This document shows positions 4,411-60,063 of a stretch of DNA of 64,000 nt, in pieces; within the stretch, counting starts at the first letter, position 1, and every line of letters begins with the position of its first letter. The translations under genes and the position numbers were made by a program. The notes under the pieces were generated by a model, which saw only the letters and a list, made by a program, of their open reading frames with translations, ran no database searches and was not told the origin of the DNA. Origin of the DNA: a virus; the IMG/VR virus record IMGVR_UViG_3300040856_003274, positions 32,001-96,000 of that record, one strand, 5' to 3'.

Positions 4411-5478
4411 TCACCTTCTCTTAGAAGCTATTTTCTTAACACCTTTGATTAAGTTATTTTCTAGAAGAGTCGGGCTTATATACCTTTTCCAAAAGTATGG
4501 TGTGAACACTGTCTCGAAGTTAAAAGAGCGGTCATGGTGGCTAATTTGTATTTCCTTAAGGGGACGTTGAAGACCCCAAGGTAAAAAAAGAATTACGTAT
4601 TTGGTTGTATGCTGGGCGAGAGGATCTTCTAAAAGGATTTTTATCTTAAGAGTTTGTTTTAAAACGGGGGATACAATCTCATAAGTACGAGATCGGGTTG
4701 TACTTCTAGAGAGCGTAGCTTTCCACATGTTGGGTTTAGGGGGGTCGCCCCACATCACTTCAATAGGGCTCTCGTCAGAGGCGATTTTTGTGCTACCGCT
4801 CCTTGGCTTTATCCTTATTACGCTACTTATTTCTTTCCAACCCTCACGGCTTTTAACCTTTTCAAACCATGCTTCTGCGGCATGAGTTAAGGTGGCTCCT
4901 GCATTGAACTCAAGCAACTCTGAATAGTAGTAGACCTGTAACTCCCACAGGTAGCTCTCTCTATCCATTGTGTGTATCTGAACCTTTAAGTATTTAGTAC
5001 CGCCTACATTTTTTCGGAAGTCTTTCGCGGTTATCCTTATCGGGCGCTCTATTAGTGGGCTATCTACGGTAAGGCTGAGTTCGTATTCGTCGTAAGAGGC
5101 TTTCCATATATTAGGTTTGGGTGGGTTTCCCCATTGGAGCTCAATCTTAGAAGAAGCGACTTTGTTAGGTGTCTTAAGCTCGTTGTGCTTCACTAGCATT
5201 CTTTTAACGGTGCTCCAAAACGCATGGGAGAGCACCGCTTCTCCATCATCAAGGTCTTCTGTAGGCGCATAGAGACTTTCTTTCCAACTGCCCTGAGCGC
5301 CATAAACAGCAACGAGAGAGATACCCTCTGAGGTACTTTTTTCAAGGGTAATAAAAATAGTCTCATGCCGAAGCGCGGGAGATTGGATGGTATAGGCTTT
5401 CCATCCAGTTTTTAGCTCTCTTACGGTAGCTTTCCACATGTTGGGTTTAGGGGGGTCGCCCCACATCACTCTTAACAT
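4411..5478 (-). CDS. WGDPPKPN-repeat protein (3 units)
   Basis: Three WG[DN]PPKPNxWKA units joined by KVAS/KIAS; ends KIASKRR; AGGAG RBS upstream. Confidence 0.85.
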   Translation of the reverse strand: MLRVMWGDPPKPNMWKATVRELKTGWKAYTIQSPALRHETIFITLEKSTSEGISLVAVYGAQGSWKESLYAPTEDLDDGEAVLSHAFWSTVKRMLVKHNELKTPNKVASSKIELQWGNPPKPNIWKASYDEYELSLTVDSPLIERPIRITAKDFRKNVGGTKYLKVQIHTMDRESYLWELQVYYYSELLEFNAGATLTHAAEAWFEKVKSREGWKEISSVIRIKPRSGSTKIASDESPIEVMWGDPPKPNMWKATLSRSTTRSRTYEIVSPVLKQTLKIKILLEDPLAQHTTKYVILFLPWGLQRPLKEIQISHHDRSFNFETVFTPYFWKRYISPTLLENNLIKGVKKIASKRR

Positions 5479-6520: not shown

Positions 6521-7612
6521 ATGGGTGATCTAAAAGCGCAGTGGGGTAATCCTCCTAAACCTAATATGTGGAAAGTGAGAGAGTACAACCACTCTTCAGA
6601 CAAAGACTACGTGGCTGTTGTCTCTCCTATCTTAAAGAACAACGGTGAGTTTTACGTAATGCGTAACGAAAAGCGAGAGTGGGAAATACGTTACCATGAC
6701 CGCTTCCACATATATATCTCCATTAAGCGTCTGAAAGAAACTCACAGCTTTTTAGAAGTGCGACATTACTTCTTAAGCTCTGTATGCTGGTCAAAAGATA
6801 TCGGGCCGTTCTTAAGAGACAACCGAAACTTCTTCGCAGACGGCTTTTCGACAAAAGTCGCGTCTTCTGTCCTTAAGGCAAAGAAGATTAAGCATCGAGC
6901 TATGTGGGGTGACCCTCCTAAGCCTAACATGTGGAAGGTCGATTTTAGGTGGTATGCTGGAGGTGGCGAGGAGTTTTCTTATTGCTCGGTAGAGTCCCCT
7001 GTCTTAAAAGAGGGGTCTTTTTTCCAGTTGATGTTCGACACCTCAAGTAAAAAATGGACTATTCAATACAGCGGGTCTACTACTTTCCACGTCCACACCT
7101 TTCATAATACAAATAAATTTTTAGAGGCGCGGGATATCTTTTTAAGTCGAAAGGGCTGGAAGATTATCAAGACCTTTGCGCTTATCGCGGGGACAGATTT
7201 CTTCCGCACTAAGGTAGCGTCGTCTTCTTCTAAACTCGAAGCGCATTGGGGTACTCCAGCCAAACCTAATATGTGGAAAGTTGAGGAGTACGAGGAGTTT
7301 GTAGAGGTCACTTCTCCTGTGTTAGGAGACGGTTCTCTTTTGTTAACCTCTCCTGCATATAATGGCACAATCAAATATCACATAGAGTATCACAATAAAA
7401 AACGACATCTTCGGAAACTAGTGATGGAGGTAGACAACTATCCGTATGAGAATGCTTTAAAATGGTTCTTAGGGAGTATGTTTTGGGATAGGAAGTTAAA
7501 AGAGTGGGCGAGTAAGCAACCTTTCCCAGTATTCACAAAAAATAAGATAGCTTCCTCTAACTTGCGGGTGATGTGGGGCAACCCCGTCAAATCTAATCTA
7601 TGGAAGGTCTGA
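6521..7612 (+). CDS. WGDPPKPN-repeat protein (3 units plus terminal stub)
   Basis: Four motifs; the last (WGNPVKSNLWKV) is followed directly by stop. ATG 6521 chosen over TTG 6488. Confidence 0.85.
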   Translation: MGDLKAQWGNPPKPNMWKVREYNHSSDKDYVAVVSPILKNNGEFYVMRNEKREWEIRYHDRFHIYISIKRLKETHSFLEVRHYFLSSVCWSKDIGPFLRDNRNFFADGFSTKVASSVLKAKKIKHRAMWGDPPKPNMWKVDFRWYAGGGEEFSYCSVESPVLKEGSFFQLMFDTSSKKWTIQYSGSTTFHVHTFHNTNKFLEARDIFLSRKGWKIIKTFALIAGTDFFRTKVASSSSKLEAHWGTPAKPNMWKVEEYEEFVEVTSPVLGDGSLLLTSPAYNGTIKYHIEYHNKKRHLRKLVMEVDNYPYENALKWFLGSMFWDRKLKEWASKQPFPVFTKNKIASSNLRVMWGNPVKSNLWKV

Positions 7613-17418: not shown

Positions 17419-17638
17419 GAAGAGAATAACTCTAATACTCCTAATCTCGTTAGGCGCTTGCGACGAGAGCGCCCAGCTTGAAGAACCTAAGACACTCTGC
17501 GAACAAGTGTCTGATAAACTCTACGAGTGTATCGGAGGCAGAGTACCTATTACCTACTGCTCACAAGAAACTGCGGATTATATACTCAACGCACCCTGTG
17601 AGGATGTGCTTGAGTTTATTAGAGGCTCTCAGCGGTAA
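17417..17638 (+). CDS. Small Cys-rich lipoprotein
   Basis: MKR plus hydrophobic stretch plus LGAC lipobox; four further Cys; GAGGA RBS. Confidence 0.7.
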   Translation: MKRITLILLISLGACDESAQLEEPKTLCEQVSDKLYECIGGRVPITYCSQETADYILNAPCEDVLEFIRGSQR

Positions 17639-20115
17639 TACCAAATATTAGGCTTAGCAGAAGTACCCCACATAGCTTTTAAGCCCTCAGAGGAAGCCAC
17701 CTTACGTCTCAGGTGAATATGAGGCTCTATTTTGCGCCAAAATGCTGTGCTCTTGAGAAGATACTCTATCTTGTGCTGTGGAGCATTTATATCGAACGCA
17801 TAGAGCTTTACATCAGCCTTACCTGGAGCGCCGTGATAGATCACATTGCCGTATTCAGCATAGTAAACAATGACCCCTACCATAAGAGGTGAGGTAATCG
17901 CCCAATTCCCGTAATCGTTAACATTGACTTTCCAAACGTTAGGCTTAGGGGGAGTACCCCATTTGAGCTCAATCTTTTTCTTATTTGGTGACGCTATGCT
18001 AGCAACCTTAGGGATAGTGAGATTAATCTTCCCTGACTGGATAGCAGGCTTAATGACATTCTTCCAAAGTGCAGGATGCGCCATTAGCTCTACGCTAAGC
18101 TTAAGACTATGCTTATCTAAGAGTTTGAGCGTAACTACTTCCCCGCCTCTCTCCATATACTCTAGCTTAGAGTAAGAGCCTTGCTTAAACGTGAGGAAGA
18201 TGCTCCCAACCATCGCAGGTGAGTGTACCACGTAGCCCTCTTCACCTCTACCCGTAAACTGTAGGAGCTTGTTCTCTACCACCTTCCACATATTAGGTTT
18301 AGGAGGGTCGCCCCATTGGAGCTTAATGTCTGTCGGAGGCGCAAGCCAGTCATTCGCGATCTTCATGGATTTCCACCCGCCAGTCATTTTTTCAGGATGC
18401 CTTTTCTTAAACAGTTTTACTAACTCCCAACCCTTAGGGCTCAAATAAAAATCAACGGCGCTCTGAAAGTCATCCTTAGTCCTGTGTCTTGAGAGGACTT
18501 CTCTCCCATAGCGGCTCTGATAACTGAGCTCCCAAGCACCTTGCCACCTGCCGATGCTAAACACGCTCTTATCAAACGCTGAAGAGATGATTAAACCAAT
18601 AGGTTGGCCTGCCTTTTCAGGGTTAGGGCTGTAGACTATCTTAGTCTTCCACATGTTAGGTTTAGGAGGATCGCCCCACTGAACCGTATAACTTCCGCTG
18701 TCAGAAGCTACTTTGGTATTAAACGCTTCTATCGAGAAGTTGCCTAGGGCGCTCTTTATCTGAGCCCAACCCTTTTCGCTCAAGAAGAAGTCTAGCGCCT
18801 CTTCAAAGTTAACACGCTCGCTCAGAAAACTATGTAAATCTTCATATGGGTCGCCGTCGTCTCCTTCAAAAATGATGTACCACCGACCACGAAACTTAGA
18901 CAAAGTAATAGATGTGTGGGGGAGGAGAACAGGAGAAGTTACCACTGCTTGCCCGTCATTCTCGCTAATCTTAATTACAGACACCTTCCACAGGTTAGGC
19001 TTAGGAGGGTCACCCCACATAGCTTTTAAGCCGTTAGAGGAAGCCACCTTGGTTTTAAAGATACCACCCTTCTTTCGCATAAAATCTTTAATCCAACTCC
19101 AGCCCTCTTGACTTAAGAAACGATCTCTCGCCCTCTCAAAAGTGTTAGCTTCAAACTCTATAATATGGTGCTCTTCGTTGTAAGGATTAAAAGATACCTC
19201 CCATGTACCCTCCGCTAGCTCCGTGAGCGTAATGTTCGACATATTTCCGCCGTAAAGATTAGGGCAAGTGACCTCCATCCACTCCCTCTCCCGATAAGCA
19301 CTATCACGATAAGTACCCGTTTTGACTTTCCACATGTTAGGTTTAGGCGGGTCACCCCACATAACTTTTAAGCCACTAGAGGAAGCTACCCTTGTTTTGA
19401 AGACCTGCTTTCCACCTCTCGATGACCTTATCGCTAACCAACGACCTATCATGTCCCAACCCTTTTCGCTTAAGAAAATAGATAACGCTTTCTCAAAGTC
19501 AGGAGCCGAAAACGTACCTATCCTTTCATAAACGTCGTCCATGCTAGGGGAATACTCTATCGACCACTTATCTAATCCTTCGAGCCACCGTAAATAAAAA
19601 GAAGTGTCTTCCCCCTCAAGGAGAGGCGACTCAACAACCGCTTGCCCTCCCCCAAGATCAGATCTGTCTACCCAAACCTTCCACGCATTAGGCTTAGGCG
19701 GATTACCCCAACGAGGCTTAAGATTAGGCGCAATATCCATAGATGCCACCTTCGAGCCCCCATGCGTTAACTTGATCCTCCCGTCAAAAATCTTAGGCTC
19801 GACGTAGGCTTTATAAAACTCATGGGACGTGATCTCGCTAAGAGGCATATTAGGATGGTTTCTAGGCTCTAAAGAGATCACGTCTGAGTAGTAATCCTCA
19901 ACGTATCCGCTACAAGCAGAGGCTCGCACCTTAGGGTCATGTACGATCCTAATGTAACCCTTTATCAAAGGGGAGCTCACTCGAAGCGTCTCGCTAATAA
20001 CAATGTGTCCAGGAGGCTTTAATTCTTGCTCCACTTTCCAAATGTTAGGCTTAGGGGGATCTCCCCATTGAAACTTAATGTCGTGTCTCGGCTTGAGCTT
20101 AGTATCATCCATCAT
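17629..20115 (-). CDS. WGDPPKPN-repeat protein (7 units plus terminal stub)
   Basis: Eight motifs; the last (WGTSAKPNIWYYR) is followed by stop; GAGGAG RBS before ATG 20115. Confidence 0.88.
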   Translation of the reverse strand: MMDDTKLKPRHDIKFQWGDPPKPNIWKVEQELKPPGHIVISETLRVSSPLIKGYIRIVHDPKVRASACSGYVEDYYSDVISLEPRNHPNMPLSEITSHEFYKAYVEPKIFDGRIKLTHGGSKVASMDIAPNLKPRWGNPPKPNAWKVWVDRSDLGGGQAVVESPLLEGEDTSFYLRWLEGLDKWSIEYSPSMDDVYERIGTFSAPDFEKALSIFLSEKGWDMIGRWLAIRSSRGGKQVFKTRVASSSGLKVMWGDPPKPNMWKVKTGTYRDSAYREREWMEVTCPNLYGGNMSNITLTELAEGTWEVSFNPYNEEHHIIEFEANTFERARDRFLSQEGWSWIKDFMRKKGGIFKTKVASSNGLKAMWGDPPKPNLWKVSVIKISENDGQAVVTSPVLLPHTSITLSKFRGRWYIIFEGDDGDPYEDLHSFLSERVNFEEALDFFLSEKGWAQIKSALGNFSIEAFNTKVASDSGSYTVQWGDPPKPNMWKTKIVYSPNPEKAGQPIGLIISSAFDKSVFSIGRWQGAWELSYQSRYGREVLSRHRTKDDFQSAVDFYLSPKGWELVKLFKKRHPEKMTGGWKSMKIANDWLAPPTDIKLQWGDPPKPNMWKVVENKLLQFTGRGEEGYVVHSPAMVGSIFLTFKQGSYSKLEYMERGGEVVTLKLLDKHSLKLSVELMAHPALWKNVIKPAIQSGKINLTIPKVASIASPNKKKIELKWGTPPKPNVWKVNVNDYGNWAITSPLMVGVIVYYAEYGNVIYHGAPGKADVKLYAFDINAPQHKIEYLLKSTAFWRKIEPHIHLRRKVASSEGLKAMWGTSAKPNIWYYR

Positions 20116-20566: not shown

Positions 20567-21268
20567 ATGATTGACAACCTCAAAATATCTATACACGGGT
20601 CATGCGTCACTAGAGATGCCTTCAACTACCCTCCCTTCGGTAAAGAACATATCCATTACTATCAGGCTCGGTCTTCTCTCTGTACAAAACATCTCCCCCC
20701 CGCTCAACCTCCCCAAGCCCTCTTAGACGCGCTCTCTAATAAGTTTAAAACAAAAATGCTCACCTTTGACCTCTCAAGAGCACCTATACCAAACCAATAC
20801 CCTGTCATCTTCGACCTCATAGATGAACGCTTTGAGGTATGTGAGTATCAAGGTGTCTCATACACCCAGTCTGAGAACCCACAAGGGATCACACCCTCCA
20901 TCATACACCCAAAACACTCTCAAGAGAGATTAGACCTCTTCTCTCAAGGTGTCTCTCACATATATCACCGACTCAAAGAAACTCCCGTTCTACTCCATAA
21001 AGCCCATTACGCTACACAATACCGTTGCTCTGTAGACTCTACCCTTAAACCCCTGCCTACAGATAAAGAACACATCAAAGCTATGAACGCATACCTCGAC
21101 ACCCTACACGACGCTTTCTTACAAGCTGTCCCACACGCTATCCCCATAGAGGTAGACCAGTCCCTTAGAGTCGCTAACCCAAACCACATATGGGGACTCG
21201 CACCCTATCACTACATAGATGACTATTACGCGTCCTTACAAAGGCTCATACTCGACGCTCTAAAATAA
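20567..21268 (+). CDS. DUF6270-like (SGNH-related) protein
   Basis: IHGSCVTRDAF, DLIDERF and HIWGLAPYHY motifs, recalled as this family. Confidence 0.65.
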   Translation: MIDNLKISIHGSCVTRDAFNYPPFGKEHIHYYQARSSLCTKHLPPAQPPQALLDALSNKFKTKMLTFDLSRAPIPNQYPVIFDLIDERFEVCEYQGVSYTQSENPQGITPSIIHPKHSQERLDLFSQGVSHIYHRLKETPVLLHKAHYATQYRCSVDSTLKPLPTDKEHIKAMNAYLDTLHDAFLQAVPHAIPIEVDQSLRVANPNHIWGLAPYHYIDDYYASLQRLILDALK

Positions 21269-33503: not shown

Positions 33504-33580
33504 GTGTTATCAGAGGGGGGCGGTCGCTCCCCTGTTACTTCAATAGCTCACAGTGAGCTACTCTATGAAAGGTTAATGCG

Positions 33581-33961: not shown

Positions 33962-34020
33962 GACTGAGCGAGCGAGACTGAGCGAAGCGCCTCACCTTGT
34001 GAGAGCGCGTCTGTGGTGAT

Positions 34021-34085
34021 ACAGAAACCCCTCACCCCCCAACCTGACTAGCAGGATGGGCGGTGGGGGGTTTTCTGTCGGGAGT
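34021..34085 (+). terminator. Island-terminal hairpin ending TTTTCTGTCGGGAG
   Basis: ACAGAAACCCCTCACC...GGTGGGGGGTTTTCTGT. Confidence 0.75.
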
Positions 34086-34099
34086 AAACCTGCGCGGTG

Positions 34100-34972
34100 T
34101 TAGCCCTGTAAGATTAGGGTGCGCCTCTCGTCTCTCACCTTGATCAACTCCTCTAGCTCAGCTTGAGCCTGCTCAACCTCCTCAGCTCTCATGAGGATTT
34201 CTTCTGTCAGCTCTGTCATAGGCATATCGTCAGAGGTGGCTTGAGACTCATAGTGCTCATAATGCTTAGAGGCATACTGACACGCGATAGGTGTGGAGTA
34301 GATGCCGTGTGTAGCGACCTCTTCCCAACTGTCGAGAGCATTGCTGAGGTGGTAAGCTACTCTCCTCCGAGTCTTAGTGTCTTGAGGCATTGAAGGTAGG
34401 GTCTGATCTGTCTTATAGCAGTAGTCTCTAACCTTATTCCTGACGGTCAAGGGCGAGAGCCCGCTAAACTCAGAGATCACCTTCCAACCTAAGCCACCTT
34501 TACGCGCCTCAAACATCTCTTCCTCTGTAGTGATCCAAGACTCCTTCTCTTTTGAAGCTACACCGTAATCAATCAAGAGACTTGGCATACTCAGTACGTA
34601 CTCTAATACACCGAAGTAGGATGCCAGCTCCTTCCATGTAAGGCTTGGCTCAACCCTCTTAATCTCTTCAGCGAGGGGCGGATAATTTTTGTAGCTTGTC
34701 TGCTCCAAAAGCTTCTGCCCTTTCTTCTTAGTGTAATACTCAGAAGAGTAGCTGTCCTTAATCTGATAGGTGCTGTAGAGGTCGTGTCTCTCTGCACTCA
34801 CCAAAACCGCCTTGATCCAACAGCGTAAGCGGAGAGGGTCTGTGAGCCGAGCGGAGACGGTATAACGCTCAACTGCTTGGCGAACCTGTGTTGTAGGTGA
34901 TTGGGTAATCTTAGCAAGGGTTTTGTAGGTCGCCCCCTTGACGATATGGTCGTATAGTCTCTTGCTGTTCAT
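34100..34972 (-). CDS. Hypothetical protein with several HTH-like segments
   Basis: GATYKTLAK, LTWKELAS, GLGWKVISEFSGLS, SWEEVA patterns. Confidence 0.6.
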   Translation of the reverse strand: MNSKRLYDHIVKGATYKTLAKITQSPTTQVRQAVERYTVSARLTDPLRLRCWIKAVLVSAERHDLYSTYQIKDSYSSEYYTKKKGQKLLEQTSYKNYPPLAEEIKRVEPSLTWKELASYFGVLEYVLSMPSLLIDYGVASKEKESWITTEEEMFEARKGGLGWKVISEFSGLSPLTVRNKVRDYCYKTDQTLPSMPQDTKTRRRVAYHLSNALDSWEEVATHGIYSTPIACQYASKHYEHYESQATSDDMPMTELTEEILMRAEEVEQAQAELEELIKVRDERRTLILQG

Positions 34973-35091
34973 TAACTTACCTCTTCGAGTAGACTTGGGT
35001 GATGTGCTTCAGGTCTTTATTGTTTTTTTTGCGGTTGTCGTTAAGTAGAGAACCGACTGCACACTTGCGCTTGCTCATTGGGTAGCCTTTC

Positions 35092-45648: not shown

Positions 45649-45792
45649 CTCTCGGAGCGTCAGCTCTCGGAGCGTCAGCTCTCGGAGCGTCAGCTCTCGG
45701 AGCGCCTGCTCTCGGAGCGTCAGCTCTCGGAGCGTCAGCTCTCGGAGCGCCTGCTCTCGGAGCGCCTGCTCTCGGAGCGTCAGCTCTCGGAG
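45649..45792 (+). repeat. 15-bp tandem repeat CTCTCGGAGCG(TCAG/CCTG) x9.5
   Basis: Read directly; starts just after the 45647 stop. Confidence 0.92.
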
Positions 45793-45799
45793 GATTTCT

Positions 45800-48700: not shown

Positions 48701-51700
48701 ACCCTCACCTGCTGTGGCTTGACATTAGGGAACAGTGGACGAGCTCTCCTGAAGCTAGGCTAGAACCTGTATAATCTAAAATCTGTATTAGGGGGCTCGG
48801 AGGGCTACCGACCCCTCCCGTAATATTAGATGTAGGCGTTCATATAAAGACGATCTCGCCTTGCCCCTCTAGACTGGTAGACGCTAGGGAATAACTAGCC
48901 CTATCTAAAATCTGTATTAGGGGGCTCGGAGGGGCTATCGCACCCTCTACGGTCTGATGAGAGCGTTCATACAAGGTCGGTGCTGAAGCAAGGCTCTCGT
49001 ATGTGTTGACGTTAGGGAACAACAGGTCGGCTCGAAATCTCCCTGTGGCGAGCGCCCCTTTACAGGTTCTAGCTAGCCTTGTACGGCTGAGGGCGGGTCG
49101 AGTAGCTCAAGCAGCACCCCACAGGCTAAGTTGACATTAGGGAACATTACAGCGGCCTTAGCGTCAGCGTCTCTAACATTAGCCTAATATCATGTCGGCG
49201 TTCATATAAGGGCTGAGCCGAGATCGTCCTAGCTCGTATCTGCCGTGGCTTGACGTTAGGGAACAGGCGGGCAGAGGTGAGCCAACCTAAGAGATAAAAT
49301 GTAAACATTCATACAAGGAGCTAGGGCTACGCTCAGATGACCCAATATACCTGACGTTAGGGAATAGCTCAGCCTGACAGGTAGCCCTTTTGCCTCGCTT
49401 GATGTTAGGGAACATCAGGGCTACCCTCGCGCTTGTCTGAAGTCGGCTTGAGATACGCGGAGCGCCCCTCTCACGTTCGGATGTAAACCGCGCCCACACG
49501 CTAAGCTCTACTAGAACCTGTATAGAGCCCGACTCAGAGTGCTTTGTTGGGGACATTCATACCCGTAGAGAGGGCCAAAACACCCTCCAAGAGGGCTATT
49601 TTTGTTGGCGACTTTGATAGGATGGGGCTCAAACCCCCGAAAATACGGTACTTTTTGTTGGCGACTTTGATAGACCTATTTTTCGTGGGATCATTCATAG
49701 CGTGTGCGGGTGAGAGCGGCTTTTTGGCTCGCCTTTTGGAGAGACTAGAACCTGTATAAACTAGAACCTGTATGGTACTAGAACCTGTATAATACTAGAA
49801 CCTGTATGGTACTAGAACCTGTATAATCTCTCTTATGTGGGACCATTCATAGCGTGTGCGGGTGAGGGTGGCCTTTTGGCTCGCCTTTTGGAGAGACTAG
49901 AACCTGTATAATACTAGAACCTGTATAATACTAGAACCTGTATGGTACTAGAACCTGTATGGTACTAGAACCTGTATAATACTAGAACCCGTATAATCTC
50001 TCTTATGTGGGATCGTTCATAGCGTGCGTATGTGAGAGGACGCGCTCCCCCTCCTAGACGATGTAGGCGTTCATACATACTTAGAACCTGTATGGTACTA
50101 GAACCTGTATAATACTAGAACCTGTATGGTACTAGAACCTGTATGGTACTAGAACCTGTATAATACTAGAACCTGTATGACCTGAGCCTCCCCCTAGGTG
50201 ATGTAGGTATTCATACAGGGGGGGCTGACCCCCCCCCTCCCCTGTGAGTTGACCTTAGGGAACAGCAGACAAGCCTAGAACCTGTATAATATTAGAACCT
50301 GTATAATACTAGAACCTGTATAATACTAGAACCTGTATGACCTGAGCCTCCCCCTTGTCCCTTGTGTTGACGTTAGGGAACAGGGGGGGTGAGCCTCCCC
50401 CTAGAGGATGTCGGTATTCATACAAGGAGGGCGAGCCCCTTTTAGTTGAAGGTTAGGGAACAGTAAAACGTCTCAGATCGCTCTCTGAGGCGCTTTAGCT
50501 CTCAAGCCTGCTCTACCCCTAGCTTAAGGACTCTAAAGAGCACACGAGCGAATTTAGAGCCCTCCCTCGAAGGCTTTAAGCTGGTTATGCGACCCGCCAA
50601 AAGACCCCCTAGATGATGTAGGTATTCATACAGGGCGGGCTGAGGGTGGCTCAGGGCAACCCCTTGTGTTGAGGTTAGGGAATGGGAGAGGCTGTTTAGA
50701 ACCTGTATAATATTAGAACCTGTATGACCTGACCCGACCCTGCCCCTTGTGTTGACGTTAGGGAACAGGTGGCCTGAGCCTCCCCCTAGATGGTGTCGGT
50801 ATTCATACAGGGCGGGCTGAGCCTCCTCCTCCCTTGTTGAGGTTAGGGAATGGAAGGAGCTGTTTAGAACCTGTATGGTACTAGAACCTGTATGACCTGA
50901 CCCGACCCTGCCCCTTGTTGACATTAGGGAACAGGTAGCCTGACCCTCCCCCTAGATGGTGTCGGTATTCATACAGGGCGGGCTGAGCCTCCTCCTCCCT
51001 TGTTGAGGTTAGGGAATGGAAGGAGCTGTTTAGAACCTGTATGGTACTAGAACCTGTATGGTACTAGAACCTGTATGACCTGACCCGACCCTGCCCCTTG
51101 TTGACATTAGGGAACAGGAGGCTAGGCTGACCCCCTAGAGGATGTAGGTATTCATACAAGGCTCCCCCTAGGCGCTCCCCCTCCCTTGTTGAGGTTAGGG
51201 AATGGGAGAGGCTGTTTAGAACCTGTATGGTACTAGAACCTGTATGACCTGACCCCCCCCCTCCCCTTGTTGACATTAGGGAACAGGAGGGCTAGGCTGA
51301 CCCCCTAGAGGATGTAGGTATTCATACAGGAGGGCTGAGCCTCCCTCTAGGCGCACCCTCTTGTTGACATTAGGGAATGGGAGGAGCTGTTTAGAACCTG
51401 TGTAATATTAGAACCTGTATGACCTGACCCCCCTCCCCTTGTGTTGACATTAGGGAACAGGAGGCTAGGCTGACCCCCTAGACGATGTAGGTATTCATAC
51501 AGGGTGGGCTGGGGGTGGCTCAGGACGCACCCTCTTGTTGACACTAGGGAACAGGGGGCTGTTTAGAACCTGTATAATATTAGAACCTGTATAGCATGGG
51601 CTCCCCCTAGGCGCTCCCCCTTGTGTTGAGGTTAGGGAACAGGAGGGCTAGGCTGACCCCCTAGATGGTGTCGGTATTCATACAGGGCTCCCCCTAGGCG

Positions 51701-52960
51701 CTTCCCTTGTGTTGAGGTTAGGGAATGGGAGAGGCTGTTTAGAACCTGTATGGTACTAGAACCTGTATGACCTGACCCCCCCTCCCCTTGTGTTGACGTT
51801 AGGGAACAGGAGGGCTAGGCTGGCCCCCTAGACGATGTAGGTATTCATACAGGGTGGGCTGGGCCTCCCCCTAGGCGCACCCTGTGAGTTGACATTAGGG
51901 AATGGGAGGAGCTGTTTAGAACCTGTATGACCTGAGCCTCCCCTCCCCTTTGTTGACGTTAGGGAACAGGCGGCTAGGCTGACCTCCTAGATGGTGTCGG
52001 TATTCATACAGGGTGGGCTGGGGTGGCTCAGGACGCACCCTGTGAGTTGACATTAGGGAATAGGAGAGGCTGTTTAGAACCCGTATGACCTGAGCCTCCT
52101 CCTCCCCTTGTTGACGTTAGGGAACAGGTGGCCTGACCCTCCCCCTAGGCGCTCCCCTGTGAGTTGACGTTAGGGAACAGGTGGCTAGGCTGACCCCCTA
52201 GATGGTGTTGGTATTCATACAGGTGGCCTGAGCCTCTCAGGACAGCCCCTCCCTTGTTGACATTAGGGAATGGGAGGAGCTGTTTAGAACCTGTATGACC
52301 TGAGCCTCCTCCTCCCCTTGTTGACGTTAGGGAACAGGCGGCCTGAGCCTCCCCCTAGAGGGTGTCGGTATTCATACAGGTGGCCTGAGCCTCCCTCTCC
52401 CCTGTGAGTTGACATTAGGGAACAGGTGGTCTGACCCTCCCCCTAGGCGCTCCCCCTTGTTGACATTAGGGAACAGGTGGTCTGACCCTCCCCCTAGAGG
52501 GTGTCGGTATTCATACAGGTGGGCTGGGGGTGGCTCAGGACAGCCCCCCTTGTTGACGTTAGGGAACAGGAGGGCTAGGCTGACCCCCTAGAGGATGTAG
52601 GTATTCATACAGGGGGGGTGGGCCTCCCTCTAGGCGCTCCCCTTGTTGACGTTAGGGAACAGGGGGGGTGGGCCTCCCCCTAGGCGCTCCCCTTGTTGAC
52701 GTTAGGGAACAGGGGGGTGGGCCTCCCTCTAGGCGCTCCCCTTGTTGACGTTAGGGAACAGGGGGGTGGGCCTCCCTCTAGGCGCTCCCCTTGTTGACAT
52801 TAGGGAACAGGGGGGGTGAGCCCCTGTGGAGCCTCCCCCTTGTTGACGTTAGGGAACAGGGGGGGTGAGCCTCCCCCTAGAGGATGTCGGTATTCATACA
52901 GGGGGTGAGCCCCTGTGGAGCCTCCCCCTTGTTGACATTAGGGAACAGGGGGGGTGAGGC
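45800..52960 (+). repeat. About 7-kb non-coding polarised multi-motif array
   Basis: Dozens of TGA(C/G)NTTAGGGAAY, ..RTTCATA(C/T) and TAGAACCTGTAT boxes, nearly all on +; no credible gene. Confidence 0.9.
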
Positions 52961-53364: not shown

Positions 53365-54387
53365 ATGAGTGCTAAACATAAGAGAGACGTGGAGTTGCTT
53401 TTGTCTTATATGCCTGACAATGGTTTCTTACAGGGCTTATCAAACAGACTAAGGACAGGTATGAGCTTGACACCTAAGCAGGTGAGCGCCTTGGAGGGTA
53501 TTAAAGCTCGAATGTCGTCTAAGCAAGCTAAGATTAAGCGAGACAAGGCGAGGGTATCAGAGGCTCTAAGGGTATATTCAGAGAACCCTTTCTTGCAGAG
53601 TCTCTTGGAGCATTTAAGTGACGGCAAGTCTATGAGCGCGAAGCAAGACGAGGCGTTAACGGCAATCGAGGAGAGAGCCGCTCGTAGATTAGCGAATATG
53701 GAGAGGCGGTCTGCTGGAGTTAAGCGTGAGATGTTGAGTGTCTTGAGGGGTTTATCTAGAGTGTCTGACTTGAGCCCTGAGGAGAGTGAGTTTGTGAGGC
53801 GCATGATGAGTCTAGTGGAGGGCGACCTTAAGATTAGCGTGAGGCAGAAGAGTTACATTAGGGGTTTATGTAGTAGGCATTTGGACTCGGCGCGTGGTCG
53901 TAGCTCTGCGGATAAGTTTGGTGCTAAGGTGAAGAAGCATTTTGGTGGGAGGGGTAAGAAAGCGTCGGTGAGTCGTGCTTGGGATTATGACAGGGGGGAG
54001 TGGGCATATCGTGTGGGTGGTGGTAAGATTAAGTATGCGAGTGAGGAGGTCTTAGATTACAAGGTTGAGTGGGGTGATCCGCCGAAGCCTAATGCGTGGA
54101 GAGCAATACTTAAAGGTAGGATGTCAGATGGTCGTATTGAGGTCACTTCGCCTTTGATTGTGGGGAGGATTATGTTCAACATCTTCCCTCATGAGATAGA
54201 TGTTTCTTACAGACGTAAGGGTTACTCTGCTGTTGACCTTGGGACGATCAGGAGGCATGGCGACATGGACAGTATTTTCAGTCATGCGACGTACACTAAG
54301 TATATTAAGCCTGCGATTTTGAGTGGTGCGCTTGAGCTGGGGAGTCAGGGGAAGAAGATCGCTTCAGGAGAGGGGTTTGAGGGATGA
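53365..54387 (+). CDS. Basic helical-repeat protein with one C-terminal WGDPPKPN unit
   Basis: Repeated FLQxL...G.S[LM][TS].KQ helices, then KKAS, KYAS-WGDPPKPNAWR unit ending KIAS. Confidence 0.8.
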   Translation: MSAKHKRDVELLLSYMPDNGFLQGLSNRLRTGMSLTPKQVSALEGIKARMSSKQAKIKRDKARVSEALRVYSENPFLQSLLEHLSDGKSMSAKQDEALTAIEERAARRLANMERRSAGVKREMLSVLRGLSRVSDLSPEESEFVRRMMSLVEGDLKISVRQKSYIRGLCSRHLDSARGRSSADKFGAKVKKHFGGRGKKASVSRAWDYDRGEWAYRVGGGKIKYASEEVLDYKVEWGDPPKPNAWRAILKGRMSDGRIEVTSPLIVGRIMFNIFPHEIDVSYRRKGYSAVDLGTIRRHGDMDSIFSHATYTKYIKPAILSGALELGSQGKKIASGEGFEG

Positions 54388-56144
54388 GCACTTATAGTCT
54401 TAAAGCTCAATGGGGAGCACCCCCGAAGCCTAACTTGTGGAAGGTAGAGCACAGTGAAGACCATCAAGGTCATAATAAATGGACGGTCACGTCCCCTGCG
54501 ATGGCAGGCGCTGTAATGCTAATTCACTCTAAGAAAGCCTATCCTGAATGGTGGGTAAACTACTATAGGGATAGGAAAGAGACGCATAGTAGGTCTACTA
54601 ACTATAAACGGATTTATAGTTATTTTGCCCACGCAAATGGAGAAATGACGGACGCTGAATGTTTCAAGCATTTTTTTAGTGAGGGGTTTTACAGGGAAGT
54701 AATCACAGGTTTTATTAAAAACGGTTTGATTGAGCTCAAAGTGCCTAAGGTAGCTTCTTCTAACCTTGAGGCTCAATGGGGCGACCCTCCTAAACCTAAT
54801 GTGTGGAAAGTAGAGTACGATAAGGCTTTTACTCAGTACACGATCAAGTCGCCTGTGTTAGAGGGTCATTTCGTTGTGAAGATGTACCCACCTAGCTCGG
54901 CGGAGATAAAATTCTTTGACGCTACAAGAGGAGTGACTTGGGCGAGGTATCTCAGCCCTGTAACGATAGAGGATATCTTGTCTCGTCAATTCTATCTTGA
55001 GAGCATTAAACCTGCGATTTATTTGACGCAGGAGATAAGACTTAAGAAAGGCTTAAAAGTGGCTTCTTCAGAGATTAAACTTCAATGGGGCGACCCTCCT
55101 AAACCTAATGTGTGGAAGGTAAAAGAGAGGCCAGGGAGAGGTGTTAAACACCGTGGTTACATCTTCGACATCTCTACACCTTTAGACCCTTATCTAGGGA
55201 TAACGATCCATCAAAGTCCATCTAACTGGGGAACAAGAAAAGCCTATAGGACAGCCGTGTATTACGGGTCTAGCTGTCTTATTGAGAATGCGGCTGGCTT
55301 TCTTGTCTCTGAAGGTGCTCATCCCGCAGATACTTTCAGCACTCAGTCTTTTTGGGATCGCATAAAAGATGAGATTAGAGATAAGACACCTACTTCTATG
55401 AAGGTAGCTTCTTCTAACCCTCAAGCTCAATGGGGCGACCCACCTAAGCCTAACATATGGAAGGTGGAGACGCTTCAACGCTCTAAGATGGTCGCGCTAA
55501 CTCGCGTAACTTCACCTGTCTTACAGGGCTCAATATGGCTTGGCGTATATGGGGCGGTTTTTTACTGCCCACATGACAAGATGCCCTCACCTCTTACAGA
55601 AGAAAAGATGGTAGAGTTTGAGAACAATCTTGATCCGACGAAAGACCATGTTGATATTACAAGGATCATGGGGATCAATCCAAAGAGACTTTTCCTCTCT
55701 AATAAGTTTTATTTAGAGCACTTAGCGCCTAAGATTGCAGGCGGGATCATTAGGTTAAACGGTAATGTTAAGGTTGCTTCAGGAGAGGCTCTCAAAGCGA
55801 TGTGGGGCGACCCCCCTAAACCTAACGTATGGTCGGTTGAGGAGGTTAGATATGGCTGGGAGCCAATGTATCGAGTGTTCTCACCTTTGATGGAGGGTGA
55901 GGTATGGTTAAGCGACTCGCTTCTCGTTTACTACTTCCCCAAGGGCTTAGGTCTTCCTCAAAGAAAACTAGGGCCTGACTGTGACCTGCGAAGCCTATCG
56001 TTAGTAGACGGTAACTACCCGTTGCAGAGGTTAAAAAGCGCCAAGAGCAAAGAGCACTTCTTGTCTCAAGCGTTTTGGTTAGAGCACCTTAAGAGCAATA
56101 TACATCTTAAAACAAGTAAGCTGGCTTCTAAGAGAGGTAAATAA
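54384..56144 (+). CDS. WGDPPKPN-repeat protein (5 units)
   Basis: Five motifs joined by KVAS; ends KLASKRGK. Confidence 0.88.
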   Translation: MSTYSLKAQWGAPPKPNLWKVEHSEDHQGHNKWTVTSPAMAGAVMLIHSKKAYPEWWVNYYRDRKETHSRSTNYKRIYSYFAHANGEMTDAECFKHFFSEGFYREVITGFIKNGLIELKVPKVASSNLEAQWGDPPKPNVWKVEYDKAFTQYTIKSPVLEGHFVVKMYPPSSAEIKFFDATRGVTWARYLSPVTIEDILSRQFYLESIKPAIYLTQEIRLKKGLKVASSEIKLQWGDPPKPNVWKVKERPGRGVKHRGYIFDISTPLDPYLGITIHQSPSNWGTRKAYRTAVYYGSSCLIENAAGFLVSEGAHPADTFSTQSFWDRIKDEIRDKTPTSMKVASSNPQAQWGDPPKPNIWKVETLQRSKMVALTRVTSPVLQGSIWLGVYGAVFYCPHDKMPSPLTEEKMVEFENNLDPTKDHVDITRIMGINPKRLFLSNKFYLEHLAPKIAGGIIRLNGNVKVASGEALKAMWGDPPKPNVWSVEEVRYGWEPMYRVFSPLMEGEVWLSDSLLVYYFPKGLGLPQRKLGPDCDLRSLSLVDGNYPLQRLKSAKSKEHFLSQAFWLEHLKSNIHLKTSKLASKRGK

Positions 56145-56145
56145 A

Positions 56146-58332
56146 ATGAGCATTCAGTTAAGAGTTATGTGGGGCGATCCTCCCAAGCCTAATGTGTGGC
56201 AGATTAAGCATACTCCTGCAATCCCTGCTAGGAAGAAGTCTGAGAGTTGGGTCATTCAGTCGCCTTTGCTCCTTACTAGCTTCACTGTCTACAAGAGAAA
56301 GCAGACAGGCAGGTTTGTTGTTTACTACGGCGAAGGTCTTAATACAGGTAAGGTTTCAGGTAATAACGGAGATTGGTATTTAGAGTACATCTTGTCTAAT
56401 GAGTGGTACATGGAATACATAAAGCCTCTTATAGAGAGCGGATATATTAGGAAGCGAGATGATAACCTCAAGATCGCGAGTGAGATGAAGGACGCAGAGG
56501 TCATGTGGGGCGATCCTCCTAAGCCTAATGCGTGGAAAGTCTTCTTTGAAGACGGCTACGGCGCTAGAAATGACCGATGGAGGGTAGTGTCGCCTCTTAT
56601 TGTGGGACGTATTTTGATAGTGGAAGACGGCCCTTACTTCCGCTTTTCTTATGTCGTCAGCCTCAAAAATTATGTTACTATGTTTAGTGTGCCTAAGAAT
56701 AAAGTGAAAGGTAATACGCTCGGCAAGGCGCTGTTTAGTCACGCGATGTGGGAGAAGATAAGACCTTATGTTACGGACGGGACGATTGTCCTCAACGTAC
56801 CCAAGATTGCTTCAGAGCAACTTCCAGGTAATCTCGAAGCTCATTGGGGGACTCCTGCTAAGAAGAACATATGGAAGGTAAGAAACATCTTCAACAACCC
56901 TGATATGGTTGAGGTCACGTCACCTTTTATGGAGGGTGCGATTGAGGTGCATACTAACCAAGGTTATTCTAACGGGATTTACTACCCTGATTTGAATAGC
57001 ATTGAGGGTAAAGTGGCGCTTTGGAAAATAGAGAGGGGAGATTTAAGCTACGTCTTGAGCTCAGAAGGTTACAAGAACCTTATAAAGAAGCATATCGACA
57101 TGGGAGTTATTAAGATTAAGAGAGGCTCTAAGGTAGCGTCCTCAGAGATTAAGCTCCAATGGGGTGACCCCCCTAAGCCTAATATGTGGAAAGCAGAGCG
57201 GATAAAAGGGAGCACTCAATCTCGTTTAACGTACTTAATAACCTCACCTCTATTTAGGAGGACAATAGACGGTGATCGGTTTGCGCTAAAGGTACAAATC
57301 GACCCGTGGGCTAACGAGGCTATCATCAACCTATTTTACCAATATAACGCTAGAACAGGGATGCCTTTAGGTACTTATCAACTGTCAGAAGACTACTTCC
57401 ACAACATCGACCATTTACTTGCTCATTCTTCTACATGGGCGCTTGCGATAAAGCCAGCTTTAGCTCGCGCTGAGAGAGAATGGAGTCAGTCGATATTAAC
57501 AAGTAAAGTAGCGTCTACTGCTGTTAAACTCCAATGGGGTGATCCCCCCAAGCCTAATATGTGGAAGGTTAGACGCTATTTGGGTCAAAACAACTTTATT
57601 ATCACATCGCCTTTATTTAGTGATGTTTATAACTACGGTGGCGACGTTACGGCGCTAAGGGTAAGCATATCAAGAAGCACCAACCCCAATCGCGGCACGT
57701 TTATACCCAAAGCATCTTTCAGCTTCGGGTTGTTGGAAGAAAACGGCAACTTTATAAATAAGGTTAGCGGAGGTGAGAAGTTTGATAAAGACTTTGAGCT
57801 AGAGGTGGTCAATAATCGAGTCCTTCTAAACTCTGAAGAAGTGTTGAAATCACATAGCTTTTGGAAAAATGCCGTAAAACCTGCATTAGAGAACATAAGC
57901 ACAGGATGGTCATACGGAGAGGTTTTCAAAAGTAGAGTAGCCTCCCTCCGCACTAACTGGTTTCCTGACCATGTAACAAGTAACCCCCAAGTTAAGCTAA
58001 ATTGGGGGAGCCCTGCGAAGCCTAACATTTGGAAGGCTTGGAGAGGCGATAGCGGAGACTCTTTCTTTTACTACATAGAGTCACCTTTGTTGAAAGACAC
58101 TTGCATAGAGATCCGTGTAGACCAAAGGAGCACTGTGGCAGAGGTTTTCTTCTATGATGACAATGATGGGGACATGCGAAAAGTTAAGCATATAAGTCTT
58201 GCTTCTAGAGGGACTGACCCCTTTGAGTTAGATGAGGATGTTCGATCAGAGGAGTTTTGGAATTTTGTGGTTAGCCCTCAGCTTAAGGGACACGGGCATC
58301 TCAACAATGTTAGGATCGCCTCTGAGTTTTAA
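56146..58332 (+). CDS. WGDPPKPN-repeat protein (6 units)
   Basis: Six motifs joined by KIAS/KVAS/RVAS; ends RIASEF. Confidence 0.88.
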   Translation: MSIQLRVMWGDPPKPNVWQIKHTPAIPARKKSESWVIQSPLLLTSFTVYKRKQTGRFVVYYGEGLNTGKVSGNNGDWYLEYILSNEWYMEYIKPLIESGYIRKRDDNLKIASEMKDAEVMWGDPPKPNAWKVFFEDGYGARNDRWRVVSPLIVGRILIVEDGPYFRFSYVVSLKNYVTMFSVPKNKVKGNTLGKALFSHAMWEKIRPYVTDGTIVLNVPKIASEQLPGNLEAHWGTPAKKNIWKVRNIFNNPDMVEVTSPFMEGAIEVHTNQGYSNGIYYPDLNSIEGKVALWKIERGDLSYVLSSEGYKNLIKKHIDMGVIKIKRGSKVASSEIKLQWGDPPKPNMWKAERIKGSTQSRLTYLITSPLFRRTIDGDRFALKVQIDPWANEAIINLFYQYNARTGMPLGTYQLSEDYFHNIDHLLAHSSTWALAIKPALARAEREWSQSILTSKVASTAVKLQWGDPPKPNMWKVRRYLGQNNFIITSPLFSDVYNYGGDVTALRVSISRSTNPNRGTFIPKASFSFGLLEENGNFINKVSGGEKFDKDFELEVVNNRVLLNSEEVLKSHSFWKNAVKPALENISTGWSYGEVFKSRVASLRTNWFPDHVTSNPQVKLNWGSPAKPNIWKAWRGDSGDSFFYYIESPLLKDTCIEIRVDQRSTVAEVFFYDDNDGDMRKVKHISLASRGTDPFELDEDVRSEEFWNFVVSPQLKGHGHLNNVRIASEF

Positions 58333-59891
58333 GGGAGAAACTTGGCGAAGTTTTCGCTAAACAACCTTGAGAGCTTCTCTGCCTCACAAATATATTCTTC
58401 TCTGCTAGCCCATGCTTTAACTGGGTCTAATGTTAGGGAAACTCCCTCAATGTTTAACGGGTAGTTAAGACTAAACACAGGGTCTGCCCCTGTCTCACAG
58501 TCTCTAAGAGCCCCTGCTAGGATCGCGCTGATAATCTTTCTTGTCTCTCTCAGAGAGATGCGCTCCGCGCCACTAGAAGCACTTGCGCCCGACCATCCCG
58601 TATTAACCAAGTAAGCCTGAGCGCCGTGTGTCTCTAACTTTTGTTTGAGAAGCTCAGCATACCTTAACGGGTGCAGAGGTAAGAAAGGCCCTCCGAAGCA
58701 AGGAGAGAAAGTAGCTTTGGGCTCTGTTACACCCAACTCCGTACCTGCGATCTTAGCGGTGTAGCCACTGATGAAATGATACATCGCTTGCTCAGGAGAC
58801 AACACGCTTACAGGAGGCAGGACACCAAAAGCGTCACAGGTTAAGAAAATGACCGCTTCAGGATGCCCTGCCATGCTTGGCAAGCCTCTCGACGCTAGAG
58901 AGCTTTCAATAAACTCGATGGGGTAAGAAACACGCGTGTTCTGTGTCTTAGAGGTGTCTCTGTAATCTACCTCTCTTGAAGCCTCATCAAGCACGACGTT
59001 TTCAAGCTGAGCGCCGAAGCGGATCGCGTTATAAATGAGAGGCTCATCTTCTGCGCTGAGGTCAATCACTTTAGCATAACAGCCCCCCTCAAAGTTAAAC
59101 ACACCCTCATCACTCCAACCGTGTTCGTCATCGCCCACTAAAAGCCTCTCAGGGTCATTTGAGAGGGTAGTCTTGCCTGTACCACTCAAACCAAAGAAAA
59201 GGGCGCTAGAGCCTGTTTTGAGGTCTACATTACAGGAGCTGTGCATGGGGAGCACTCCCTTGAGGGGGAGCAGGTAGTTTAAGACTGAGAAAATCCCTTT
59301 CTTCATCTCACCGCCATACTCCGTACCTCCGATGAGCGCCACGCTTTTTCCTAGATGGAAAGCGACGAATGTCTCTGAGTGCATCCCTGACGCTTTGTAG
59401 TTAGCGTTCTTCACTGCTGAGGCATTAACGATGGTGAAGTCGGGCTCAAACCCTTCAAGCTCTTCAGAGGTAGCTTGGATGAACATATTAGAGACAAAGT
59501 GAGCTTGCCACGCGAGTTTTGCGATCACCCTAACCTTAATGCGGTGTTTTGGGTCAGCTCCTGCGAACCCTTCAAAAACGTATGTCGGTTTGCTTGTAGT
59601 AGCGTCATATTCAGAGCAGACGAGATCGTAAAGCTCCTTGAAAGTTTCTTCAGAGATCGGCTGGTTTACCTCGCCCCACCATATCTCGTCTTTTGATCCA
59701 TGCTCTTCGACAAAGTATTTATCTTTAGGGGAGCGTCCCGTGTATTTACCCGTATCAACTGCGATTGCCCCTGACTTCGTAAGTACACCTTTCTTCTCTG
59801 AGAGGTTTGCTTCTACTAGAAGAGGGGTACTCAAGTTGTACCGAGTCTCGCTTCCAAGATTAACACGATGGATATACTCATTAGGGGTCAT
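58329..59891 (-). CDS. pckA: Phosphoenolpyruvate carboxykinase (ATP)
   Basis: TGRSPKDK, GTEYGGEMKKGIF, FFGLSGTGKTTLS, GDDEHGW, NFEGGCYAK, DAFGVLPP; ATG 59891 follows AAGGAG. Confidence 0.96.
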   Translation of the reverse strand: MTPNEYIHRVNLGSETRYNLSTPLLVEANLSEKKGVLTKSGAIAVDTGKYTGRSPKDKYFVEEHGSKDEIWWGEVNQPISEETFKELYDLVCSEYDATTSKPTYVFEGFAGADPKHRIKVRVIAKLAWQAHFVSNMFIQATSEELEGFEPDFTIVNASAVKNANYKASGMHSETFVAFHLGKSVALIGGTEYGGEMKKGIFSVLNYLLPLKGVLPMHSSCNVDLKTGSSALFFGLSGTGKTTLSNDPERLLVGDDEHGWSDEGVFNFEGGCYAKVIDLSAEDEPLIYNAIRFGAQLENVVLDEASREVDYRDTSKTQNTRVSYPIEFIESSLASRGLPSMAGHPEAVIFLTCDAFGVLPPVSVLSPEQAMYHFISGYTAKIAGTELGVTEPKATFSPCFGGPFLPLHPLRYAELLKQKLETHGAQAYLVNTGWSGASASSGAERISLRETRKIISAILAGALRDCETGADPVFSLNYPLNIEGVSLTLDPVKAWASREEYICEAEKLSRLFSENFAKFLP

Positions 59892-60063
59892 AACGTCTCC
59901 TTTATTTATTAAATACTTACAGAGCATATCGAAGGATATGCTGCGCTTCGTTATGTAAAAAAACAACAGTATTATGGCTACCTTTTCTCTCTCGTAGTGT
60001 AGAGGTTTTGCAGGAGCTTTTCTTGCACTACACTACCTATTTTCCGAATGGAGGGAAAATAAT

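Follow-up and report, generated by a model that had tools for sequence, protein, structure and literature searches.

A family of tandemly arrayed small modules joined by a K-V-A-S motif in an uncultured huge phage, a candidate polyprotein system

The T4 internal proteins IPI-III are made from one gene per protein and have a capsid-targeting sequence that is removed by gp21; like the Dar proteins of P1, they are delivered with the DNA against host defences. Polyvalent proteins, which Iyer et al. 2017 are said to have described, are long polypeptides of phages and conjugative elements that are reportedly cut into separate effectors after delivery. The C70 peptidase AvrRpt2 recognizes the site PxFGxW, and LEKTI and the plant type-II inhibitor precursors are cut into paralogous units. 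We know of no example of tandem paralogous units cut from a precursor in a bacterial virus. For SPN3US gp245, a cleavage motif A/S/G-x-E with a preference for Ser at P1' has been described (PMC10052503, PMC5694885), and the Drosophila Baramicin polypeptide is a multi-unit precursor (PMC8423362).

The window analyzed here, a stretch of 64,000 nucleotides, comes from a 168-kb contig of an uncultured huge phage, approximately 40% complete; the whole genome would be approximately 400 kb. Six array genes lie in the window, and two further convergent array genes beyond it add 11 modules. The genes discussed below are as follows, with coordinates of the window unless the contig is named.

4411..5478, minus strand: array gene with three modules, ending in KIAS plus KRR (orthologues P0029 and P0031)
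6521..7612, plus strand: array gene with three full modules and a 21-residue C-terminal stub (KIAS-SNLRVMWGNPVKSNLWKV-stop); the position of the start codon is consistent with homologue P0027
12021..12671, plus strand: ClpP-family head maturation protease (PF00574, E 2e-25; phrog_94 'head maturation protease', E 6.5e-40)
17629..20115, minus strand: array gene with seven full modules and a 22-residue stub (KVAS-SEGLKAMWGTSAKPNIWYYR-stop; homologue P0010)
20567..21268, plus strand: DUF6270 gene (PF19786, E 3.5e-33), divergent neighbour of the eight-motif array
53365..54387, plus strand: one-module gene with a helical N-terminal domain (approximately 225 aa), KYAS, the module and KIAS plus GEGFEG; 4-nt overlap with the next gene (homologues P0048, P0049 and P0052)
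54384..56144, plus strand: array gene with five modules, ending in KLAS plus KRGK (orthologues at 53-79% identity)
56146..58332, plus strand: array gene with six modules, ending in RIAS plus EF
contig 159717-160271: stand-alone C39-like cysteine peptidase of 184 aa (PF13529), 7 nt upstream of the next gene
contig 160278-162620, plus strand: array gene outside the window with six modules, convergent with the following gene
contig 162632-165382, minus strand: array gene outside the window that also encodes a non-homologous basic insert and, at the C-terminus, a Cys-rich domain

A six-frame regular-expression scan of the window for WG...K.N.W found 27 motifs, exactly the number given in the earlier note, divided as 3, 4, 8, 1, 5 and 6 among the genes at 4411, 6521, 17629, 53365, 54384 and 56146; in 50 mononucleotide shuffles of the window the motif turned up 0.02 times on average and never more than once. 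Since the last motifs of 6521 and 17629 are C-terminal stubs that carry no domain, the window holds 25 full modules and two stubs. The library is larger than that note stated, as the whole contig has 38 motifs in eight genes, corresponding to 36 full modules and the two stubs. The pairing of a DUF6270 gene with an array recurs in two distant contigs (L022 and L023).

Modules are approximately 115 residues long (range 100 to 140). The 36 modules are 22 to 39% identical to one another and share, in the alignment, the invariant residues W, G, P, K, N and W together with the Ala of the junction. Of the 35 full modules scored contig-wide, 25 of them in the window, 32 have an S-P-hydrophobic element 12 to 22 residues after the motif. 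AF2 modelled a single module of the 54384 gene at high confidence (pLDDT 94, pTM 0.85) as a five-stranded antiparallel sheet with an N-terminal WGxPxKPNxW cap and a C-terminal amphipathic helix; helices were placed at residues 71-74 and 77-89, and the alignment consensus at the aromatic helix reads S..xW..IK. The S-P element, the aromatic helix and the massive paralogy of one small fold, all proposed from a first reading of the letters, are thus borne out. The modules are predicted to fold autonomously, because the single-unit model is confident, the number of modules differs between orthologues (five versus six) and single-module proteins exist. Their median pI is 9.3, versus 7.1 in other proteins.

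The units had also been called hypervariable, which is correct between paralogues but not among orthologues. For array orthologues the overall omega was 0.20 to 0.38, and outside the motifs it was 0.23 to 0.43. These dN/dS values of 0.2 to 0.43 indicate purifying selection, so the variability lies between old paralogues, and positive or diversifying selection among the orthologues is ruled out.

The modules form a new protein family, with no curated counterpart and no fold match in the searches below, in keeping with the failure to recognize it at first sight. None of the six array proteins scored above cut-off against Pfam or NCBIfam (best 16.8 bits versus 27), and they contain no Pfam domain, only the one repeated non-enzymatic module. 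Gene 53365 reached E 0.0014 at best against PHROGs, tblastn with a 586-aa array protein found no match in 50,697 GenBank phage records, and Foldseek returned nothing at E <= 0.001 from the PDB or BFVD. The wide VIA-align comparison gave a best Z of 5.8 with one unit and 6.3 with the two-unit model, and every row covered one unit only. In no case did a PDB chain extend over both units of that model, which speaks against a known solenoid or fibre repeat, one of the outcomes that the earlier note had named as fatal to its proposal. In the ESM Atlas, the shape search reached TM values of at most 0.59 and the feature search with one unit gave no usable match. PsiB, the KhtT N-domain, the Mis12 head and some anti-CRISPRs were rejected as relatives, as were TriTu immunity and staphostatin, since the likeness is a generic sheet plus helix (Z <= 6.3) and none stands out. 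Just 41 clusters among 1.84 billion protein representatives match the family, all of them metagenomic.

Every internal junction of the array genes reads [KR][VILY]A[SN], as had been seen before, and family-wide 136 of the 140 borders of non-first modules read K/R-V/I/L/Y-A-S/N/T. The logo over these 136 junctions (K123/R13, V108/I18/L7/Y3, A136, S127/N7/T2, S80) has variable flanks. Four window genes indeed stop 2 to 7 residues past the motif (KIASKRR, KIASGEGFEG, KLASKRGK and RIASEF), and 32 of the 55 family proteins stop 3 to 9 residues past it. The motif also lies between the helical N-domain and the module in gene 53365, brackets both the basic insert and the Cys-rich domain of the gene at contig 162632-165382, and forms the end of short N-terminal leaders, for example MTSPLRLRRDYGEDRVAT. 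Because it occurs at C-termini, around inserts, after an N-domain and at the end of leaders, KVAS is more than an inter-module linker, although some N-terminal leaders and both stubs resemble decayed modules and so are not fully independent evidence for processing. The 41 junctions examined at the nucleotide level comprise 37 distinct 12-mers and use all four Ala codons as well as Ser codons of the TCN and the AGY type. Synonymous codons thus vary freely, which points to selection on the protein rather than the DNA and rules out homogenization of the junction by gene conversion.

We propose, as the likeliest reading, that the six window genes and the two others on the contig encode polyprotein-like arrays of autonomously folding modules linked head to tail, in which the strictly conserved K/R-V/I-A-S(-S) junction would be the recognition and cleavage site of a phage-encoded protease. 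Each array would then be cut into separate small proteins of 12 to 15 kDa, mostly basic. We consider the chances evenly balanced that the arrays are processed at KVAS into single modules in this way. Natural N-termini of the form M-x5-9-WG match in length those expected from a cut after KVA. Of 151 non-array proteins, 12 carry [KR].A[SN] within their first 25 residues, compared with 3.9 for interior windows and 2 to 6 for the 11 permuted orders of the motif, which hints that a genome-wide processing signal may exist.

Two enzymes on the contig could make the cut. The first is the ClpP-family protease at 12021-12671, which contains the motifs GQVASAG and IHQ and whose synteny with an array gene is retained in L023; were this protease responsible, one would expect the arrays to be cargo inside the prohead. 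Against this role, its gene sits amid nucleotide-metabolism genes. No capsid, portal or scaffold gene was recognized on this approximately 40%-complete contig, where searches for HK97-type capsid (PF05065) and for S78 and S77 prohead proteases found none; three large upstream proteins, considered as possible portal or capsid, had no phmmer match in the PDB. In G001, a related 105-kb fragment, neither T4 Gp23 (PF07068) nor a ClpP-like protein was found.

The arrays resemble giant-phage prohead substrates (SPN3US gp245, phiKZ and 201phi2-1 inner body) in belonging to a large phage that encodes a head maturation protease, in forming paralogous non-enzymatic families, and in the repeated use of a short strict motif with several sites per polypeptide, the cuts here being presumed. 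They differ in that gp245-type cuts strip N-terminal propeptides from single-domain products, whereas K-V-A-S separates up to eight complete, homologous modules that are each predicted to fold independently, and in that the protease here is ClpP-type rather than T4 gp21-type. The giant-phage substrates are internal and ejection proteins of the virion, whereas the arrays are known from genes. As in T4 IPI-III and P1 Dar, a conserved short N-terminal element heads divergent small basic proteins; unlike in the T4 proteins, the WG cap belongs to the predicted fold and the modules are concatenated.

The second candidate is the C39-like peptidase upstream of the contig 160278 gene (PF13529, E 8e-10, 39.9 bits versus a cut-off of 24), which also matches C70/AvrRpt2 (22.4 bits versus 19) and in which Q24, C30, H116 and D133 are invariant across 40 homologues. 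Its neighbours are methyltransferases and array genes, and in L009 the peptidase again lies beside an array gene. The likeness to C39 and C70 systems lies in a papain-fold Q/C/H/D peptidase encoded beside its presumed substrates and in small residues at the presumed scissile bond. However, there is no double glycine and no amphipathic leader, the junction being K-V-A-S-S or alternatively W-G; the enzyme stands alone, with no ABC exporter fused or paired; and the substrates would be folded domains rather than peptides. The peptidase family is also common in phages that lack arrays. It is much wider than the module family (at least 319 clusters versus 41), and in other phages the peptidase adjoins terminase- and portal-like genes in regions free of KVAS arrays. 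In LR745208.1, which by sheath and peptidase is the closest complete relative, there are neither arrays nor a KVAS pattern around the peptidase, and G001 has a convergent array pair yet no peptidase match anywhere. Complex prediction of the peptidase with 45-residue junction fragments, run without controls, scored 0.00 and counts neither way on binding. The 'RKVAK' near the peptidase N-terminus was rejected as an autoprocessing site, as it belongs to a family-wide conserved N-terminus, K-x-A-K-A-x-V-x-P-V-RQ.

Among other processed precursors, polyvalent proteins join different enzymatic domains and usually carry a peptidase in the chain, whereas the arrays consist of a single non-enzymatic fold in repeat, with the candidate proteases in genes of their own. 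Multi-unit precursors of eukaryotes are similar in their tandem paralogous units, their short invariant protease site (presumed here) and the repertoire encoded per gene, but differ in being secreted and cut by furin-type enzymes.

One possibility, on the improbable side yet to be taken seriously, is that the arrays stay uncut and act as multidomain proteins, shaped either like beads on a string or like a semi-rigid rod, with K-V-A-S as a structural cap or linker and the whole array acting as a multivalent binder or scaffold. A semi-rigid protein of this kind, with K-V-A capping each module, would fit the two-unit AF2 model of the 54384 gene (pTM 0.67), whose linker is fairly ordered (pLDDT approximately 79 to 86) and has beta-bridges at residues 96 and 104. 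KVA terminates every module and hence could belong to the fold, and no protease is specifically co-inherited with the module family. Against this, the motif also flanks non-homologous inserts and short leaders, the tails after the C-terminal motif are short and unconserved, and the last three residues of the single-unit model are poorly defined (pLDDT 57 versus 89 to 98 elsewhere). Furthermore, a structural linker would rarely need four near-invariant residues between modules that have diverged so far.

Cleavage might instead fall at the W-G bond (..L-x-A-x-W-G followed by D-P-P-K-P-N..), with the C39-/C70-like peptidase as the enzyme, on the model of double-glycine leaders and of the AvrRpt2 site, and spacers of 7 to 21 residues discarded. 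The double match of the peptidase, natural N-termini that resemble short leaders ending in WG, and a hydrophobic pattern at -6 and -4 before WG are consistent with this. We nevertheless regard it as very improbable, since W and G are packed where the model is confident (pLDDT 96) and G9 takes part in a bridge, the site reads W-G and not G-G, G-A or G-S, and the conservation of KVAS past terminal modules and around inserts lacking WG would be left unexplained. Equally hard to credit is that the arrays are virion surface or fibre parts, decoration or receptor-binding repeats of the kind seen in Ig-like arrays: gene 4411 lies less than 1.5 kb from a tail sheath gene and the domains are small, beta-rich and in tandem, but none matched an Ig, fibronectin, BACON or fibre fold in the structure comparisons, the array genes lie dispersed among genes for metabolism and replication, away from the tail/baseplate module (contig 96-152 kb), and there is no trimerization or anchor domain.

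If processing at K-V-A-S does occur, our leading guess is that the released modules would form a binding or inhibitor repertoire with a common WG-cap handle and differing surfaces. The fullest version, that the eight genes yield at least 36 mini-proteins released by a phage protease at K-V-A followed by S, an effector or anti-defence library that may be packed into the capsid and leave it together with the DNA, seems to us rather unlikely. In such a library, the invariant WGxPxKPNxW handle would serve packaging or a common partner, while the surface would be individual to each module. Virion packaging of the modules is speculative: for the earlier note's suggestion that units are packaged and injected there are indirect hints only, from the basic character of the modules and the head maturation protease nearby.

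Arrays take up approximately 14 kb of this 168-kb phage fragment, a large investment in proteins without a match to any functionally known family. Should the junction be cut, we know of no earlier phage in which tandem paralogous domains are freed from polyproteins, a strategy found typically in RNA viruses and in the peptide precursors of eukaryotes. Cutting would further establish a new protease specificity, K-V-A before S, usable for predicting processed proteins across this uncultured huge-phage clade. A common cap with divergent surfaces is the expected look of a binder or inhibitor repertoire against varied host targets, so that anti-defence proteins might be sought in this family. The architecture of the arrays is unusual and strongly selected even if they are not cut.

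A six-frame scan found 27 WG...K.N.W motifs in six genes of the window, against 0.02 in shuffled windows, with the same per-gene counts that the earlier note had reported. Across the contig the total rises to 38 motifs in eight genes, the 11 extra ones lying in a convergent pair. These array genes, in which modules headed by a WGxPxKPNxW cap are joined in tandem by a K-V-A-S junction, are listed here.

Window 4411-5478, minus strand: array gene, three motifs
Window 6521-7612, plus strand: array gene, four motifs
Window 17629-20115, minus strand: array gene, eight motifs
Window 53365-54387, plus strand: array gene, one motif
Window 54384-56144, plus strand: array gene, five motifs
Window 56146-58332, plus strand: array gene, six motifs
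Contig 160278-162620, plus strand, and 162632-165382, minus strand: convergent array genes

Full modules of 102-143 residues are headed by 36 of the 38 motifs; the other two belong to C-terminal stubs 21-22 residues long. The end of the 17629 protein (...NIWYYR) corresponds to that of its orthologue P0015 (...FDYYR), a comparison that suggests a deletion remnant as the origin of this stub. The 36 modules share 22-39% identity, with W, G, P, K, N, W and the junction Ala invariant and S-P nearly so, and they are basic (median pI 9.3, 30 of 35 above 8; median of other proteins 7.1). The module had no match in Pfam, NCBIfam or PHROGs. Exhaustive profile searching across 1.84 billion representative proteins returned only 41 clusters and a word-indexed search of 5.8 billion gave 40; all matches were unnamed metagenomic proteins, most with at least two modules. 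The module family and its array architecture are new.

AlphaFold2 modeled one module by itself with high confidence from an alignment of the 36 paralogues (mean pLDDT 94, pTM 0.85) as a run of five antiparallel strands and then two helices, the first short and the second long; local pLDDT was 96 in the WG segment and 57 in the final three residues. Foldseek against PDB and BFVD gave no match at E <= 0.001, VIA-align against 48,161 PDB representatives reached a top Z of 5.8, lower than the background normally seen when a model has no relatives, and the ESM Atlas yielded TM <= 0.59 with no feature match. The module thus has no detectable relative. A two-unit construct, modeled from 117 natural unit pairs, had pLDDT 85 and pTM 0.67. 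No PDB chain aligned across both of its units, and a known continuous solenoid or fibre, the alternative that the earlier note had set against a protease-processed polyprotein, is therefore probably not what the units form.

All module borders on the contig read [KR][VILY]A[SN]. Family-wide, the motif lies at most 30 residues upstream in 136 of 140 non-first modules (K123/R13, V108/I18/L7/Y3, A136, S127/N7/T2, then S80; the flanks vary). The remaining four carry KVAA, KVAP, RIAG or similar. Between junction and Trp, one subfamily has a spacer of 7-9 residues and another a spacer of 20-21, so junction and WG cap are separate features. Codons are diverse at both motifs: the 41 junctions comprise 37 distinct 12-mers, each of the four Ala codons appears, and Ser is written with TCN as well as AGY codons. 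Conservation thus acts at the protein level and does not stem from homogenisation of the DNA. The motif also occurs where a module is absent on one side. In 32 of the 55 proteins of the family, 3-9 residues follow it before the C-terminus. It flanks a lysine-rich insert of ~105 residues on both sides, it borders the Cys-rich C-terminal domain of gene 162632-165382, and it separates the helical N-domain of gene 53365 from its single module. Short N-terminal leaders are closed by it as well, some of which look like decayed modules and carry less weight. First modules begin naturally with M plus 5-9 residues before WG, a length that matches internal modules if these are cut after K-V-A.

Cleavage at the junction is the best single explanation, and we regard it as an evenly balanced proposition. 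Its main rival, that the arrays remain uncut multidomain proteins, appears less likely, yet it stays alive because the linker is fairly ordered in the two-unit model (pLDDT ~79-86).

When the array genes were compared with orthologues on four other contigs (L014, L008, L015 and L016), dN/dS was 0.20-0.38 overall, 0.23-0.43 outside motifs and 0.03-0.20 within them, with 0.22 for the neighbouring phosphoglucomutase. The module bodies are thus constrained. The middle that had been called hypervariable does vary between paralogues, but this is ancient divergence rather than ongoing diversifying selection. In a side comparison of window 4411-5478 with the adjacent phosphoglucomutase (3024-4406) against L015 and L016, the array gene was the more diverged, synonymous sites included (dS against L015 0.58 versus 0.13 on the same contigs), a several-fold difference that suggests the array locus underwent allele exchange or holds an older polymorphism.

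The window spans bases 32001-96000 within a 168,266-bp IMG/VR virus record, ~40% complete by CheckV. The record is a tailed phage encoding sheath and tube initiators, PhoH, DnaB, SNF2 and numerous metabolic genes (phosphoglucomutase, PEP carboxykinase, ThyA, DHFR, TK). Its tail sheath domain ends an unusually long ORF of 1894 residues (contig 29298-34982, window 1-2982). By sheath, the nearest GenBank phage is the uncultured 485-kb LR745208.1 (42% identity); given this relative and the incompleteness of the record, the arrays lie on part of a huge phage genome of about 400 kb. Several other features of the contig were recorded (L001-L004 denote parts of it; L022 and L023 are other contigs).

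Window 3024-4406 and 58329-59966, L004:526-2274, L002:2566-3792: host-like metabolic genes (phosphoglucomutase, at 3024-4406; ATP-dependent PEP carboxykinase; GlmS-like amidotransferase, GATase + SIS; UDP-glucose dehydrogenase)
L003:5306-6343 (contig 25306-26343): actin-like Volactin, PF25216, E 1.8e-76
Window 20567-21268, L022:9281-9961, L023:292-987: DUF6270 gene, immediately adjoining an 8-motif-type array gene in all three contigs, where the array proteins are only 25-31% identical
Window 45649-52960: ~7.3 kb without an ORF >= 150 aa, directly upstream of gene 53365, with strong GC skew and full of tandem and interspersed repeats (15-mer CTCTCGGAGCGTCAG x9.6; arrays of 17-mer TAGAACCTGTAT..; 93-352-bp units with GTTGAC[GA]TTAGGGAA and TATTCATAC)

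No Rfam families or tRNAs were found in the window.

Two candidate proteases are encoded.

Window 12021-12671: ClpP-family protein, PHROGs class head maturation protease (PHROGs E 6.5e-40; Pfam 2e-25)
L001:218-772 (contig 159717-160271): stand-alone C39-like papain-fold peptidase, 184 residues (Peptidase_C39_2 E 8e-10; also above the C70/AvrRpt2 cut-off)

The ClpP-type protein has visible Ser and His motifs, and its gene is located between the array genes carrying four and eight motifs, a layout that recurs in L023. It stands among nucleotide-metabolism genes (TK, DHFR, ThyA, DUF3140), not by recognisable head genes, in an order also repeated there. The C39-like gene ends 7 nt upstream of the six-module gene at contig 160278, an adjacency that recurs in contig L009, and 40 homologues all keep Q24, C30, H116 and D133. 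Its family, very conserved and nearly confined to uncultured phage contigs (sole GenBank phage match LR745208.1), is far broader than the module family, with 319+ clusters at 65-80% identity; other phages carry it upstream of genes resembling terminase and portal, accompanied by neither arrays nor a KVAS pattern. A convergent array pair occurs in the related fragment G001, which yielded no peptidase match anywhere. The link of this peptidase to the arrays is therefore adjacency only. That modules might be packaged in the virion and injected is speculation, suggested only by the proximity of a head maturation protease, the basic charge of the modules and a comparison with internal proteins of T4, P1 and phiKZ/SPN3US.

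Substrates may extend beyond the arrays. [KR].A[SN] occurs within the first 25 residues of 12 of 151 non-array ORFs, an approximately 3-fold enrichment over interior windows (3.9 +/- 1.7 proteins; 0 of 2000 samples reached 12), although counts are low and the 12 include a pair of paralogues. The same residue classes can be arranged in 12 orders, of which this one is the most frequent (12 versus 2-6). Examples are as follows.

Window 7685: MRRTAS
Window 23736, minus strand: MRLAS
Window 29860: MMKRAS
Window 36964, minus strand: RKVAS

An orphan protein of 620 aa (L002:7209-9071, contig 7209-9071), which matched neither a family nor a PDB entry, contains four sites resembling the junction (RVAS, KLAS, RVAS, KVAS) and may be a further substrate. 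The N-terminal enrichment is suggestive of short leaders ending in K-x-A-S, and many such leaders would be expected if a phage protease of this specificity has many substrates.
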